From a virus (lineage: Duplodnaviria; Caudoviricetes): a DNA stretch of 64,000 bases. The position numbers and the translations under genes are program-made. The stretch is from IMG/VR virus record IMGVR_UViG_3300021255_000062, positions 32,001-96,000 of that record. One strand, 5' to 3'. The notes below the pieces were generated by a model. That model ran no database searches and was not told the DNA's origin. It was given only the letters and a program-made list of their open reading frames with translations. This document shows positions 21,556 to 26,205 of the stretch, in pieces (position 1 is the stretch's first letter; each line of letters starts with the position of its first letter).

Positions 21556-22188
21556 ATGCAAGGAATTGATATAACTGGACAACGCTTTGGTCATTTAGTT
21601 GCTTTAAAGTTAATACCCAAAGAAGAACGTACTTGGAGTAATAAAGAAAGGGCTTGGTTATGTAAGTGTGATTGTGGTAATGAAGTCATAGTGCGACAAA
21701 GAAATTTATTAAGCAGTAGACCAACCCGTTCTTGTGGATGTTTGCGTAAAAAAGAAGCGTTCAAGTCAACTAATATGATAAAAGGGTTAGAAGATGAATT
21801 TTTAGATAGTTTTAATGATTTTGATAAATTTCTTTTTATTCATAGAACTATTCGCACTGCAATAGGAAATTTTAGTAGTTTAGAAAAGGATAAATATAAA
21901 GAACTAATAAACCACTTTTATAATCAAAAACAATTTAATGATATATATAATTTTTGGTTATCTCAAGAAAAAACTGATACTTTTTATGATTGGGCAAAAC
22001 CTTCTATTGACCATATTATTCCCAAAGCAAAGGGAGGCACTAATGATTTAAACAACTTACAATATCTTACAGTTTTTGAGAATTTAAACAAACGAGATAT
22101 GACAATGAATGAGTGGAATAATTTTAAAAAACTAACTCACACAAGTAGTGATTATTTTTATGAGTCAATTAAGGAGGTGATGCAATGA
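21556..22188 (+). CDS. free-standing HNH homing endonuclease
   Basis: N-terminal DITGQRFGHL...WLCKCDCG...SCGC; C-terminal SIDHIIPKAKGGTNDLNNLQ...ENLNK. Confidence 0.85.
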   Translation: MQGIDITGQRFGHLVALKLIPKEERTWSNKERAWLCKCDCGNEVIVRQRNLLSSRPTRSCGCLRKKEAFKSTNMIKGLEDEFLDSFNDFDKFLFIHRTIRTAIGNFSSLEKDKYKELINHFYNQKQFNDIYNFWLSQEKTDTFYDWAKPSIDHIIPKAKGGTNDLNNLQYLTVFENLNKRDMTMNEWNNFKKLTHTSSDYFYESIKEVMQ

Positions 22189-25100
22189 AAAATCAGTTAA
22201 GATACCCAGGATCGCTCCATAATCATACTGATTTTTCTTAGGTGATCCAATTTTCGTTTGCGTGACAGTATTAACACTGTCGAGTCATTAATAGATTATG
22301 CAATAGAACTTGGTCATGAAGTAGTAGCGATTACTGAACATGATACAATAGCTAGTGCTATCAGAGCGGAAAAATATTATAGCAAAATTAAAAAGAATAA
22401 TCCGGACTTTAAACTTATTAGAGGTAATGAGATTTATCTTGTAAGAAATGGATTAAATAATGATAACTTTAAAAAAGAAACAGATAGATATTTTCATTTT
22501 ATTCTGTTAGCAAAGGATCTCGAAGGTCATAGACAGATTCGCGAGATTTCTTCGCGTGCTTGGATGAGAAGTTACATGGCGCGCCGTATGAGAAGGGTCC
22601 CAACTTATTATCAAGATTTAATTGATGTAATTGGAAAGAATCCTGGCCATGTGGTTGGGTGTACGGCATGTTTAGGTGGGTGTCTTCCAACTCAACTTAT
22701 CCGTAATAGAGATACTGGCGCACCGAGTATGGACTTGATTAAACGATGGATTGTTCAGATGCAAGGTATTTTTGGAATAGATGACTTTTATTTCGAAATG
22801 CAACCATCATTTAATAAAGACCAGATTTATGTAAACAAAAAATTAGTTGAACTTAGTGAAGAAATGGGTATCAAATATATTATAACTAACGATGCTCATT
22901 ATTTAAAAAAAGAAGATAGACCAATTCATAAGGCTTTTCTTAATGCTCAGCAAGGAGATAGAGAAGTTGACGATTTCTATGCAACGACCTATTTAATGAG
23001 TGATGAAGAAATTTATCACTATATGGAAGAATCATTAGGAGAAACAGTTTTACAAAAAGCATATCAAACAATAGAAGAAATTAAAGATAAGTGTGAAGAC
23101 TATTCATTAATGAAACCGCTAAAGATTCCAAGATTGAATTGGAAGACTTTTGATGTCAAATCAGATGCGGTAAAATTTTTAAGTGATAAAATCCCTTATT
23201 TAAAAAGATTTCTCGAATCAGAATATGCAGAGGACAGACATTTAGCATATGCAATTATTGATAGATTAACCAATAGTAAAGCAGAAGATGAATTATGGAA
23301 CAAAGAAACTTATGAAGAAATTAATGCATGTCTTAAAGATACGTGGGTATCATCAGAAGTAAACGGAAGTAGATGGAGTGCTTATTTCTTAAATCTTCAA
23401 AATATAATTGATGCTTGTTGGGACGCAGGAACTCTTGTTGGCTGCGGCCGAGGCTCTGGAGTTGGTTTTATTTTGTTATATCTATTAGGTATAACTCAGA
23501 TAAATCCACTAAGAGAAAAAAGTCAAACCAAAAGATGGAGATTTCTTAATCCAGAGCGTGTGTCAGTCCTTGATGTAGATATTGATATCGAGGGCGGACG
23601 GCGTGCAGACGTATTAAAAAAGTTTCGTAAAATTTATGGAGAAGATAGGGTCGCTAATGTATTAACATTAAAAACAGAAAAATCTAAGTCTGCAATTCAA
23701 ACAGCTTGTCGTGGATTGGGAGTAGACAGTGATATATCTGCATATCTTTCTTCATTCATTCAAGCTGATAGAGGACAGCTTCGAACTCTTAAACAAACTT
23801 TTTACGGAGATCCCGATAATGGGATTAGTGCCTCCCATCAGTTCAAATTAGAAATGGAAGAGAACTATCCAGAAGTCTGGGAAGTGGCGCAAAGAATTGA
23901 AGGATTAATCAATGGCTGTGGGGTTCACGCGGGTGGAGTTATCTTTGTAGATGAGCCTTTCACAAAGTCAACCGCATTAATGCGAGCGCCAAAAGGAGAA
24001 ATTATAACTCAATTTGATCTCCATGATGCGGAAGATACAGGACTTATTAAATATGATATCCTATCCGTTGAAGCATTGGATAAAATTCACAATTGTATTG
24101 ATTTGATTTGTAAATATGGCTATGAAAAAAGAGAAGAAACATTAAAAGATACCTATGAAAAAATTATTGGTATATATAATCTTGAACGTGAAGCGCCAGA
24201 GATGTGGCAGATGTGTTGGAATCATGAGGTAATGAGTTTGTTCCAAATGGAAAAACAATCTGGAGTAAACGGAATTGCAGCAATGAAACCAACTTCTGTA
24301 GATGACTTGGCAATTCTCAATTCAGCAATTCGTCTTATGGCGACAGAAAAAGGTGGAGAAATGCCAGTTAATAAATTAGCTAGATTTAAAGCGCATCCAT
24401 CTGATTGGGATTATGAATTACAAAAATATGGACTTGGCGCTGAAGCAAAAGAAATTCTTGAACCAGTTCTTAATGTATCTTACGGTTTATGTATTGCTCA
24501 GGAACAATTTATGCAACTTGTACAGCTACCTGAATTAGGTGGATTCAACCTAACCTGGGCAGACAAGTTAAGAAAGTCAATTGCAAAAAAGAATCCGGCA
24601 CAGTATGAAGAGTTAACCAAAGAATATTTCAAGGTTATAAAAGAAAAAGGTTTAGATGAGCGACTTTGTACTTATGTATGGAATGTACTTATTGCAATGA
24701 GTAAAGGTTATGGATTTAACTTATCTCATACGTTGGCTTATTCATTAATCGGATTGCAAGAGTTAAATCTTGCATATCGTTATCCAACAATTTTATGGGA
24801 TTGCGCTTGTCTTATCTCTGATAGCGGCGGTGTCGATAAAGAAGAAGAGGAAGAAGATGGAAATAACGAAGAAACAACTAGAGGAAATGTTTGGGATTCG
24901 TTTGATGACATATCAATGGGTGTTTTTACAGATGATGAAGATGGAGAAGTGGGAGACATTGATTTATCTCCCACCAAGAAGAAATCGTCAAACAGAACTG
25001 CTAACTATGGCAAAATTGCTACAGCAATTGGAAAAATAAGTCAAGAAGGTGTAGAAATTATAGCCACAAATATAAATAAGTCTGAATACACCTTTGCACC

Positions 25101-26205
25101 AGATGTAGATAATAATAGAATTATTTATGGTTTAAGTGGTATAACTAGAGTTGGTGATGATTTAATTCGTTTAATTATGAATAATAGACCGTATGAGTCA
25201 ATAGAAGATTTTATTGGTAAAGTTAAAGTTAATAAACCACAAATGATTAATTTGATTAAGTCAGGCGCATTTGATGAGTTATATGGCGGCGATCGTGTAG
25301 TTGCAATGAATAAGTATATTGATTTAATTGCCGACAAAAAGAAAAGAATGACATTACAAAATATGCAAATGTTAATTAATTTTGGTTTCATTCCAGAGGA
25401 ATATGATTTTCAATGTAGGGTTTACAACTTTAACAAATATTTGAAAAAACATAAAATTGATAATTCATATGGTATTGATAATGTTGCTCTAACTTTTTAT
25501 TCAAACAATTTTGATATGGATTTATTAACTCCTTCTGATGAATATGTATTTACTATAAAGCAAACTGATTGGGATAAAATTTACAAAAAGCAAATGGATA
25601 TTATTCGTCCATTTATTAAAGAGAACAATCAAGAGTTGTTAGATAAAGTAAATAATAAACTTAGACAAGATTTATGGGATAAATATTGCTCTGGAACTTT
25701 AAGTCAATGGGAAATGGATTCTATTTCTTGCTATATTCATGACCATGAATTAAAGAATCTTAAAAATGGATTTTATGGATTTGCAGAATATAGTAAACTA
25801 CCAGAGAATCCGATAGTAAGTTATGAATTTCGTTCTAAAGAAACTGGTCAAAAGATTCCATTATTTAAAATTTGTCGTATTGCTGGAACAGTATTAGACA
25901 AAGATAAAAATAAGAAAATGATTACTTTGTTAACCAATGATAGTGTTGTAACTGTAAAAATATTTGGTGATGCTTTTACTCATTATGATAGACAAATATC
26001 AGAAAAGCAACCAAATGGAACTAAAAAGGTAGTAGAAAAGTCTTGGTTATCAAGAGGAAATAAAATTATAGTAACGGGGATTAGAAGAGAAAATAATTTT
26101 ATAGCGAAAAAATATAAAAATACTCCATATCATTTAGTTGAATTAATAACTTCAATTAGTGATGATGGTTATATTACAACTCAAAAGGAGCGAGTTGAAG
26201 TATGA
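22185..26205 (+). CDS. dnaE: DNA polymerase III alpha (DnaE), interrupted by a 10-nt gap at 22239-22248
   Basis: ATG 22185 with AAGGAGG SD encodes MKNQLRYPGSLHNHTDFS, then TAG; the +1 frame continues NFRLRDSIN...; GRGSG, DVDID, HAGG, KYDIL and GYGFNLSH motifs. Confidence 0.9.

Follow-up and report, generated by a model that had tools for sequence, protein, structure and literature searches.

Organization of the dnaE locus

In the window, i.e. the whole 64 kb stretch of DNA that was analysed, the reading frame of a DnaE/YorL-type Pol III alpha gene (dnaE) is broken after 18 codons by a 10-nt insert, directly downstream of a homing endonuclease gene. The genes and the elements at the interruption were located as follows.

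21556..22188, + strand: free-standing HNH homing endonuclease gene, 210 aa (Pfam HNH, 2.8e-05; PHROG HNH endonuclease, 4e-21)
22171..22181, + strand: Shine-Dalgarno (SD) sequence of dnaE, AAGGAGGTGAT, with GGAGG 7 nt before ATG 22185
22185..22238, + strand: dnaE leader ORF of 18 codons, MKNQLRYPGSLHNHTDFS, encoding the first (HxH) motif of the PHP domain
22236..22238, + strand: proposed take-off codon UCU (Ser), the last sense codon before an in-frame UAG
22239..22245, + strand: non-coding gap TAGGTGA; frame 0 ends at UAG 22239-41, frame +1 at UGA 22243-45
22246..22248, + strand: proposed landing codon UCC (Ser), 10 nt downstream of UCU; decoding would resume at AAU 22249
22249..26205, + strand: remainder of the polymerase ORF, ~1318 codons, intact

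The phage with the interrupted dnaE is a cattle-gut phage with a record of 125.9 kb. DnaE was the only replicative polymerase found in this record. The polymerase ORF downstream of the gap returned Pfam matches to PHP, DNA_pol3_alpha, finger and HHH_6, the PHP match beginning at model position 6, as compared to position 2 in the uninterrupted relative L002. The two codons flanking the insert, UCU and UCC, both encode Ser and are readable by one tRNA, and the stop codon UAG stands directly 3′ of the first of them. Joining UCU to UCC gave LHNHTDFSNFRLRD, equal in length and sequence to the uninterrupted relatives. In the 18-aa leader the conserved part is the PHP motif itself, the N-terminal part being variable, and the codon differences in the leader, 540 synonymous versus 126 nonsynonymous, show purifying selection.

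Contigs of four independent studies crossed positions 22236-48 without any indel, and the insert is therefore real DNA; one run labelled metatranscriptomic is probably DNA, and is represented by contigs only. Simple +1 and −2 frameshifts, including a +1 shift of the prfB type, were excluded by the UGA at 22243-45, which closes the +1 frame, so that at least 7 nt must be skipped. Stop-codon reassignment was likewise rejected, as frame 0 reaches a second stop (TGA 22263-65) eight codons past the UAG. Phage-encoded tRNAs able to explain suppression or hopping were not found in the window.

Endonuclease cassette

The stop codon of the HNH gene (TGA 22186-88) overlaps the dnaE start codon, and compared with L002, the closest relative without an interruption, the gene constitutes ~660 nt of inserted DNA. 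The alignment placed the other end of the cassette shortly after the landing codon.

22249..22256, + strand: approximate right-hand junction between cassette and recipient backbone; the window tracks the interrupted allele L084 up to AATTTT and the uninterrupted L002 thereafter

Of 18 interrupted contexts, 12 had an HNH or GIY-YIG gene upstream of dnaE, as compared to 2 among 32 contexts without interruption. Pfam searches of the 406-456-aa upstream proteins gave nothing useful, and PHROGs identified these proteins as HNH-type homing endonucleases. The content of the gap changes quickly among alleles with the same HNH gene, and the SD string of dnaE is common to nearly all interrupted alleles.

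Interrupted alleles in related phages

Among the matches listed, 28 of 108 related loci carried an interrupted dnaE, in addition to the window. The gaps of these 28 relatives were 2-8 nt long and were located at three sites in the HxH motif (LH|N|HTDFS|N), and every one of them opened with TGA, TAG or TAA straight after the take-off codon. The flanking codons were identical or synonymous in 25 of the 29 alleles (28 relatives and the window), and imperfect landing codons were confined to three allele types (L059, UCU to UUU; L097, AAU to AGC; L100/L101, CAU to CAA). Joining the flanking codons restored the uninterrupted protein length in all interrupted alleles listed, and the ORFs downstream of the gaps in the relatives were intact, with ~1310 aa. 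In the site-2 alleles with a TGAGG gap, slippage by −1 on the U run would likewise bring back the reading frame, with three additional residues in the product.

Interrupted alleles were scattered over the DnaE tree together with uninterrupted sisters (window/L002 at 91%, L017/L013), and the distribution of the interrupted form was patchy and mobile, independent of the DnaE phylogeny. A second allele of the window type (type A) was not met with: an exact 15-mer scan of viral contigs produced 56 matches, none in a dnaE context, and scans of metagenomes and genomes revealed no further type-A allele among the matches listed. Genome contigs contributed only uninterrupted MAG matches with at most 69% identity, Acutalibacteraceae and a probably mis-binned Bacteroidales contig included. 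A tblastn search against 50,697 phage records returned only relatives with at most 51% identity. Two late-starting matches from cultured phages, Enterocloster phage CB473P1 and Phass-1, were both uninterrupted (2 of 104 records examined).

Judged from their sequences, the 28 interrupted relatives and the window make up a putative family of natural short “stop-hops”, and the placing of the window insert in a bypass context is strongly supported by the relatives.

Leader hairpin and take-off stem-loop

The leader of the window folds into a hairpin that extends from the start codon to the take-off codon.

22187..22197, + strand: 5′ arm of the leader hairpin, GAAAAAUCAGU, beginning at the G of the start codon
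22227..22237, + strand: 3′ arm of the leader hairpin, ACUGAUUUUUC, its last two bases being the first two of the take-off codon

This hairpin comprised 11 bp with a z-score of −3.57, 1 of 200 shuffles being as good, and an arm-to-arm duplex energy of −13.0 kcal/mol. A leader hairpin was present in all 19 distinct interrupted leaders (median z −3.0), whereas 63 uninterrupted alleles were without it, the median z of their leader folds being 0.07 (Mann-Whitney p 1e-10); p-values here overstate independence because the interrupted alleles are related, with about five independent leader-stem designs. No arm-to-arm duplex of the interrupted leaders was weaker than −8 kcal/mol, the medians for comparison being −2.2 to −4.7. 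The stem sequences vary by class and move with the take-off site, the 3′ arm ending at most 2 nt from the take-off codon at all three sites, and the helix covers the start codon in every class. The aligned helix was 100% paired and had compensatory pairs in relatives; in the MAFFT alignment of the site-2 leaders, a misplaced length gap put three helix pairs out of register, and eight pairs were formally counted. The hairpin was retained in six interrupted alleles without an adjacent endonuclease and was absent from the uninterrupted L028, in which an adjacent endonuclease is present. Exceptions among the uninterrupted alleles were L027 and L067, with leader folds of z about −3. The leader hairpin can be regarded as an upstream stem-loop able to refold behind a sliding ribosome, on which it would be expected to have an effect.

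All other site-2 alleles had in addition a take-off stem beginning at UCU (z −2.0 to −6.5). The local 3′ fold at the take-off site of the window reached −2.7 kcal/mol (z +0.95), with no take-off stem-loop spanning the take-off and stop codons. According to the alignment, the 3′ arm of this stem-loop was lost in the window at the cassette junction.

Complementarity of the gap to 16S rRNA

Two further elements had been singled out in the first-pass annotation of the sequence, as possible bypass-stimulating signals.

22240..22248, + strand: AGGTGATCC, perfect 9-nt complement to the 16S rRNA 3′ tail GGAUCACCU, overlapping the landing codon
22209..22216, + strand: GGATCGCT, 5′ arm of a proposed outer stem with its partner at 22241-48, situated in the loop of the leader hairpin

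GGAUCACCU is the conserved 3′ sequence of 16S rRNA, presumed to be that of the host as well. The exact complement to the anti-SD region at 22240-48 was confirmed and is far beyond chance, with one occurrence on both strands of the 64 kb against 0.19 expected, and the duplex of AGGTGATCC with the 16S tail (−16.1 kcal/mol) was stronger than those of all 1500 windows of the same coding sequence.

Its role as a bypass stimulator has partial support from the comparison of alleles. SD-like gaps (TGAGG, TGAGGG, TAGGGAG, TAGGTGA) recur at two sites, which favours such a role, and TGAGG itself arose at two different sites. On the other hand, 7 of 12 gap types were without an SD-like string, including TGAATG in the closest cassette relative, L084, and the complement stands 0 nt from the landing codon, which it abuts and overlaps. 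As only about half of the related alleles, and not L084, have an SD-like gap, the anti-SD match is optional at best. The 9-nt complement is peculiar to the window allele and no more than an auxiliary signal, perhaps one that makes up for the 3′ take-off stem-loop which disappeared at the recombination junction. The extraordinary strength of the match could mean more than an auxiliary role in the window.

The 8-bp stem between 22209-16 and 22241-48 (GGTGATCC), enclosing an inner stem of AATCA (22221-25), TAC (22226-28) and TGATT (22229-33), is present as letters, and the structure is the minimum-energy fold of a 66-nt excerpt (−12.1 kcal/mol). It was no more stable than 31 of 200 shuffles (z −1.02), and in a context of 136 nt it was replaced by another hairpin in the best fold. 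With random bases at the four filler positions between invariant stop and landing codons, 2.8% of the inserts paired as well with the leader, a nominal and post hoc figure. The 5′ arm GGATCGCT is a G-S-L codon string of the ordinary kind, and the uninterrupted relatives L074, L080 and L087 have it as well. The inner stem and the conserved leader hairpin are mutually exclusive, and the outer stem together with the leader hairpin would form a pseudoknot, as GGATCGCT sits in the loop of the latter. Moreover, the 3′ arm would be located in the A site and entry channel at take-off and in the P and E sites at landing, and therefore could not pair during the hop. A stimulating function of this stem was thus not upheld, given its z-score, its absence from the best fold in context and the lack of comparative support. 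The stem is most likely fortuitous, and at most masks the internal SD-like stretch on ribosome-free mRNA.

Proposed mechanism and alternative readings

The 10-nt insert is probably the coding gap of a short programmed hop within an endonuclease cassette, with the hairpin from start to take-off codon as the conserved signal. Ribosomes would initiate at ATG 22185, translate 18 codons, and come to a halt when UAG enters the A site, peptidyl-tRNA(Ser) then being paired to UCU 22236-38. This tRNA would let go of the mRNA, which would slide by 10 nt, and would pair again on UCC 22246-48. Decoding would resume at AAU 22249, and the product would be a single full-length polymerase whose HxH motif is intact; the tryptic junction peptide expected from the UCU-to-UCC hop is YPGSLHNHTDFSNFR. 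Three conserved cis-signals would be involved: the matched take-off and landing codons, the stop directly 3′ of take-off, and the leader hairpin 22187-97/22227-37. At take-off, the 3′ arm of the hairpin would lie in the mRNA exit path, where it would pair anew with the 5′ arm, which is free, and thereby promote sliding in the forward direction or prevent a slide back. A more extended model is put forward tentatively: stop-hop cassettes may be modular and fast-evolving, the hairpin of the whole leader driving hops of 5-11 nt with gap content nearly free, and in the window the 9-nt duplex of mRNA and 16S rRNA, perhaps together with a loop-to-gap pseudoknot, may have replaced the take-off stem-loop lost by recombination.

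Since the start codon lies within the hairpin, the step that is controlled could be initiation of dnaE and not sliding, through occlusion of the start, coupling to translation of the endonuclease or spacing of ribosomes, and the SD-like gap would then be a neutral by-product, e.g. a templated copy of the cassette SD GGAGGTGAT made in break repair. The start codon inside the helix in every class, the overlap of the HNH stop with the dnaE start, and the rapid turnover of gap content among alleles sharing an HNH gene all agree with this, as do the gap strings AGGTGAT and GAGGT, which are substrings of the SD 60 nt upstream. We nevertheless consider it rather unlikely, since a pure start-codon occluder has no need of a 3′ arm that tracks the take-off codon at three sites, the hairpin occurs without an adjacent endonuclease and is missing from the endonuclease-bearing uninterrupted L028, and TGAGG arose at two different sites. 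The main reading of the first-pass annotation, in which the outer and inner stems and the anti-SD complement are both dedicated bypass stimulators, is judged improbable. The window may need substitute stimulators because it is without the 3′ take-off stem-loop of its relatives, SD-like gaps do recur, and besides the best fold of the short excerpt and the 2.8% of random fillers, the gaps of L023, L059, L084 and L097 form, in nominal terms, better pairings with the S-L-H codon region than random ones do. Against this stand the fold statistics and the loss of the stem in context, the competition of the inner stem with the conserved leader hairpin, the 5′ arm shared with uninterrupted alleles, the non-SD gap of the closest cassette relative L084, and the absence of covariation support, no second type-A allele having been found in the scans.

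The anti-SD complement had alternatively been proposed as an internal ribosome-binding site, with termination at UAG followed by re-initiation, or with de novo 30S binding, at a TTG downstream of the insert.

22258..22260, + strand: TTG, Leu codon of NFRLRD, the proposed re-initiation codon

The products would be an 18-aa peptide and a 1315-aa polymerase without the HxH motif. It is true that the strongest SD-like string of the gene is followed by an in-frame TTG 9 nt past its 3′ end, but the spacing is, as had been noted at the outset, long: GGTGAT ends 11 nt before TTG 22258 and 3 nt before the authentic ATG, the aligned spacing being 8 nt longer than at the authentic start, and the GGAGG-equivalent position lies 15 nt from the TTG. 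The codon is not conserved as a start, being CTT, CTC, TTA or CTA in most other interrupted alleles with no other start codon nearby; the leader codons are under purifying selection; and the product would begin inside the first PHP motif. A separate peptide would also be structurally senseless at site 1, where the gaps split H-N from H. Re-initiation at TTG 22258 was rejected on these grounds, and the internal ribosome-binding site as a whole is very unlikely. Least credible of all is an assembly error or a decaying pseudogene, which a lone frame-breaking insert of 10 nt would resemble, as an error or a fresh lesion; it is at odds with the agreement of the four independent studies, with the 28 additional interrupted alleles, which have intact leaders and ORFs of ~1310 aa, and with DnaE being the sole polymerase of the phage.

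Significance

Efficient translational bypass is to our knowledge known essentially from T4 gene 60 and its homologues and from the byps of yeast mitochondria. With the interrupted dnaE alleles, around a dozen natural variants of the gap would become available, 2-8 nt long, some in frame and others not, and spread over three sites of a single 12-codon motif. Each variant has a matched uninterrupted sister allele, and together they make a ready-made mutational series. This series addresses the minimal signals for a hop, the refolding of exiting mRNA as a drive for sliding, and the replacement of a take-off stem-loop by pairing of SD and anti-SD. If the 9-nt duplex did replace the take-off stem-loop, rRNA pairing and mRNA hairpins would be interchangeable bypass signals. 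The idea that an untranslated insert confers immunity to homing endonucleases might also be carried over to a second gene, as well as to further phage lineages and several families of endonucleases. The pattern also concerns annotation, in which such polymerase genes are now called truncated or split.

Comparison with known recoding systems

In the +1 frameshift of prfB (RF2), an SD sequence precedes the shift codon by 3 nt, and the codons paired before and after the shift overlap; the too-close pairing of rRNA and mRNA is thought to push the ribosome forward. The dnaE interruptions resemble prfB in having a stop codon in the A site and, in the SD-like alleles, a possible SD-like element, and differ in that the SD-like stretch lies downstream of the take-off codon, i.e. 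of the last zero-frame sense codon.

Synthetic stop-hops in Escherichia coli (Weiss, Dunn, Atkins and Gesteland 1987, as described in PMC5009743) were of low efficiency and made with artificial constructs. As in these, matched codons flank a stop in the dnaE alleles, with counterparts at +5 (L115), +6 (L069) and +9 (L084, L056 and L065); unlike them, the pattern is natural and conserved, and is found in an essential gene with a dedicated hairpin. According to the same review, of 2016, no natural in-frame stop-hop was known, and shorter natural counterparts of bypassing had long been expected and not found (PMC5009743).

The byps of Magnusiomyces capitatus (cited in PMC5009743 and PMC7026636) are mitochondrial and 27-55 nt long; the A site is occupied by a sense codon that is otherwise unused, and a link to homing endonucleases is not known. 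They share with the dnaE gaps the occurrence as many short mobile inserts skipped in translation, the matched take-off and landing codons, and a take-off hairpin.

A further parallel is T4 gene 60, where the bypass is associated with the mobA cassette (Bonocora et al. 2011, as cited in PMC5009743 and PMC7026636; homologues in bioRxiv 10.1101/2022.08.31.505936). There, refolding of the upstream mRNA prevents backward sliding (PMC7026636), and the gap holds a mini-SD together with a stop or hungry codon (bioRxiv 10.1101/2022.08.31.505936). Both systems have an untranslated insert in an essential replication gene beside a free-standing HNH endonuclease, matched take-off and landing codons with a stop right after take-off, an upstream stem-loop whose refolding can direct sliding, and a patchy, mobile occurrence among close relatives. 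A G-rich, SD-like stretch in the gap is shared by the window, and a take-off stem-loop including the stop codon by most same-site relatives, though not by the window. The two systems differ in several respects. The gap is 2-8 nt (a hop of 5-11 nt) and not 50 nt, and a leader of only 11-18 codons does not suffice for a nascent-peptide signal of the gene 60 type in the exit tunnel. The whole leader, start codon included, is taken up by the upstream hairpin, and the SD-like stretch abuts the landing codon, being ~6 nt before it in gene 60. Finally, the gene is a Pol III alpha, interrupted in its PHP motif, in Firmicutes-type phages with SPbeta-like gene content, and the endonucleases are of no fewer than three types, with three sites of insertion.

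The dnaE gene and its gap

The source viral record of the window is 125.9 kb long and carries direct terminal repeats. Its dnaE gene begins as a short leader ORF, separated by a gap, i.e. non-coding bases between a take-off and a landing codon, from a long downstream frame with PHP, DNA_pol3_alpha, finger and HHH_6 domains (Pfam).

Features of the dnaE start region
21556-22188, + strand: HNH endonuclease gene, ending on the dnaE start codon
22185, + strand: dnaE start ATG, with the strong SD AAGGAGGTGAT in front at 22171-22181
From 22185, + strand: leader ORF of 18 codons, translation MKNQLRYPGSLHNHTDFS, closed by UAG 22239-22241
22187-22197, + strand: 5′ arm GAAAAAUCAGU of the leader hairpin (11-bp helix), from the G of ATG
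22227-22237, + strand: 3′ arm ACUGAUUUUUC of the same 11-bp helix; its end covers bases 1 and 2 of the take-off codon
22246-26205, + strand: downstream dnaE frame from UCC, 1319 codons, DnaE/YorL-type Pol III alpha

The +1 frame of the leader contains UGA at 22243-22245 and is open from UCC 22246. A hop from UCU 22236-22238 to UCC 22246-22248 gives back LHNHTDFSNFRLRD exactly; joining the frames by a +1 or -2 shift was ruled out, because at least 7 nt need to be skipped. The PHP match starts at model position 6 in the downstream ORF versus position 2, on the LHNH residues, in an uninterrupted relative, which places the gap within the first metal-binding motif. Contigs of four independent studies span the region without indel, and thus the insert is real. 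No second replicative polymerase was found anywhere in the 125.9-kb record.

Gaps in related alleles

Scans of viral and metagenome contigs found 108 related loci, and the 28 interrupted ones all had the gap inside the same 12 codons.

Gap types (take-off codon/gap/landing codon)
Site 0, after the first His: CAT/TGACC/CAA
Site 1, after Asn: AAC/TGAGG/AAC with TGAGGA and TGAGGG variants, AAT/TGAG/AAC, AAT/TA/AAC, AAT/TAGGG/AGC
Site 2, after Ser: TCT/TGAGG/TCT, TCT/TGAAG/TCT, TCT/TAG/TCA, TCT/TGAATG/TCT, TCT/TAGCGAAA/TCT; in the window TCT/TAGGTGA/TCC

A stop codon forms the first bases of every gap, directly 3′ of the take-off codon, and hop lengths range from 5 to 11 nt, some of them in frame. 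When the gap flanks were joined, the uninterrupted protein length was always regained, and all full-length interrupted alleles retained ORFs of about 1310 codons. Within the motif part read before take-off, 540 synonymous versus 126 nonsynonymous codon differences were counted, and its Gly, Ser, His and Asn were invariant though each has several codons in use. From this it follows that the leader is translated and needed; both a pseudogene and a polymerase starting downstream thereby become less likely.

Re-initiation at TTG 22258, which the first-pass annotation had offered as an alternative role of the insert, was rejected as the main function: the GGTGAT of the gap is separated from this codon by 11 nt, versus 3 nt between the GGTGAT of the authentic SD and its ATG, most other interrupted alleles have no start codon in place of this Leu codon, no other start codon was found near its position in them, and at site-1 gaps re-initiation would strand His-Asn on a separate peptide. 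At most, a trace product might arise in the window allele.

Four gap types were in frame, TAG (+6 hop) and TGAATG, TGAGGA and TGAGGG (+9 hops) (L069:1450-1510, L084:1268-1340, L056 and L065 near position 1480), and would be natural in-frame stop-hops; readthrough, as the alternative, would place 2-3 extra residues within the HxH motif. Landing codons were imperfect at the gaps of L059, L097, L100 and L101 (UCU to UUU, AAU to AGC, CAU to CAA), the CAU to CAA mismatch being seen in two diverged contigs. The gaps of L059 and L097 are SD-like, in line with the published proposal that weak landing sites are helped by an SD.

A conserved leader hairpin

The leader helix of the window had a z-score of -3.57, with an equally good fold in 1 of 200 shuffles. 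The same fold was present in 19 of 19 distinct interrupted leaders (z -1.9 to -4.1, median -3.0) versus a median z of 0.07 in 63 distinct uninterrupted leaders (Mann-Whitney p 1e-10, although the sequences are related and p-values overstate independence). Every interrupted allele had an arm-to-arm duplex of -8 kcal/mol or lower, against uninterrupted medians of -2.2 to -4.7 at any mock take-off site. About five different stem designs occur, and the 3′ arm shifts along with the gap.

3′ arms of the leader hairpin
Site 2: ACYGAUUUUUC before UCU
L094: CGACUAUUC
Site 1: GUCUUCAU before AAY
Site 0: UGGUAGUUUACAU, CAU included

Where the site-2 helix was aligned, every cell was paired and two pairs were changed on both sides; one more compensatory pair, A-U to G-C (CAG/CUG versus CGG/CCG), lay outside the aligned register. 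Six interrupted alleles without an upstream endonuclease still have the hairpin, and uninterrupted L028 has such an endonuclease yet no hairpin, so that the hairpin tracks the gap and not the endonuclease. The uninterrupted L027 and L067, with an "MRM" double-ATG start, had leader folds of z about -3 in which the start region pairs with the S-L-H codons; these may be left over from a gap since lost, or else represent pre-adapted sites.

A different stem had been proposed as a possible stimulatory signal, GGAUCGCU/GGUGAUCC (22209-22216/22241-22248) around an inner AAUCA/UGAUU. It lies where described, as does the anti-SD complement at 22240-22248. A 66-nt excerpt folds best in this form, but with a z-score of only -1.02, and the stem disappears from the best fold once the whole leader is included. 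Its outer 5′ arm consists of ordinary codons for Gly-Ser-Leu, a string also found in uninterrupted alleles, and 2.8% of inserts with four randomised filler bases (stop and landing codons fixed; nominal, post hoc) pair equally well with the leader. The inner stem needs UGAUU 22229-22233 and is thus mutually exclusive with the conserved helix; the outer stem and the leader hairpin together would form a loop-to-downstream pseudoknot.

SD-likeness of the gaps

The anti-SD complement AGGTGATCC, by contrast, stands out: it occurs once in 64 kb, is the strongest anti-SD partner within dnaE, and at -16.1 kcal/mol beats all 1500 background windows. Among the related gaps, TGAGG types scored -6.3 to -6.8 kcal/mol (top 3-5% of windows), TGAGGG -10.2 and TAGGGAG -7.4 kcal/mol; TGAAG, TGAG, TAG, TGAATG, TAGCGAAA, TGACC and TA were unremarkable. 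TGAGG arose at two different sites, which indicates that G-rich, SD-like fillers are favoured; such fillers are nevertheless not required: L084, the nearest cassette relative, has TGAATG. The complement lies directly against the landing codon and so cannot be paired to the anti-SD while the ribosome takes off or lands; pairing could occur only 1-3 codons after landing, e.g. as a pawl against back-slippage.

The gap's AGGTGAT (22240-22246) is also contained in the SD of the gene itself, GGAGGTGAT (22173-22181), 60 nt upstream, and GAGGT of type-B gaps is likewise a substring of the cassette SD. A neutral origin of the SD-like content is possible, and the repeat could point to an insertion templated in the course of break repair.

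Take-off stem-loop lost from the window

All site-2 alleles other than the window have a stem-loop whose 5′ arm starts from the take-off UCU and takes in stop, gap and landing codon, e.g. the 12-bp UCUUGAGGUCUA/UAGACUUCGAGA (z between -5 and -6.5); those of L069, L084 and L094 had z -2.0 to -2.5. None is present in the 3′ local fold of the window (z +0.95). In alignment A5, the window tracks L084 through AATTTT past the landing codon and then the backbone of L002, its closest uninterrupted relative, reading CGTTTGCG in place of AGAYTNMGAGA, which indicates that the 3′ arm was lost at a recombination junction.

About 25 nt past the gap, the codons for RDSINTVE (22260-22285) form a 7-11-bp hairpin with covarying versions, UGACAGU/ACUGUCG (window), GAGACUCAA/UUGAGUCUC (L003) and GGGAUUCAA/UUGAAUCCC (L071). 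A similar palindrome in uninterrupted L013 suggests that it may be general to the dnaE 5′ end.

The mobile endonuclease cassette

An endonuclease gene lies upstream in 12 of 18 distinct interrupted contexts versus 2 of 32 scanned uninterrupted ones.

Upstream endonuclease genes
210-aa HNH: window, L004, L069, L084
406-456-aa HNH-type homing endonuclease (phrog_374 3.9e-99, phrog_9084): L014, L022, L064
GIY-YIG: L017, L023, L051, L071, L101

The DnaE tree places interrupted alleles beside uninterrupted sisters throughout. Compared with L002, the window has about 660 nt of extra sequence inserted, and after this comes a short stretch of low identity surrounding the gap.

The 406-456-aa proteins (L014:1273-2640, L022:562-1929, L064:157-1374), HNH or homing endonucleases by PHROGs with no Pfam match, consist of four or five tandem modules of about 60 aa and a nuclease-like C-terminus; the module (motif G-RFG-L-V...C-C-CG...SCGC) recurs as the N-terminus of the HNH protein in the window. 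Uninterrupted L028 has a GIY-YIG/NUMOD1 endonuclease upstream (1924-2766) and the altered motif LHCHSDHS, and may have gained immunity by substitution instead of an insert.

Proposed mechanism and comparison with known systems

Matched codons, an A-site stop, a hairpin abutting take-off, a selected and translated leader, and endonuclease association are established by sequence and comparison. In the stalled ribosome, the hairpin 3′ arm would sit in the mRNA path between P site and exit, with the 5′ arm free 30-50 nt upstream. A forward slide of 5-11 nt would allow most of the helix to form, so that refolding could favour forward and block backward movement; mRNA refolding behind the ribosome has been proposed to have such a directional role in gene 60 (PMC7026636; bioRxiv 10.1101/2024.12.09.627546). 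With the gap placed this early, in the first 11-18 codons, failed attempts would be cheap. The window's strong anti-SD match may make up for the missing take-off stem-loop.

An incomplete literature search returned gene 60 and metagenomic homologues, and nothing on short stop-hops occurring naturally in polymerase genes of phages; according to a 2016 review, shorter bypass counterparts had been expected but were missing, and in-frame stop-hops were not known from nature (PMC5009743). The 3′ stem-loop of the site-2 relatives resembles the take-off stem-loop of gene 60, unlike the window's allele, which is without one. The window cassette follows the same logic as described for T4 mobA/gene 60, in which the insert that is left untranslated is presumed to guard against the endonuclease (PMC5009743, PMC7026636).
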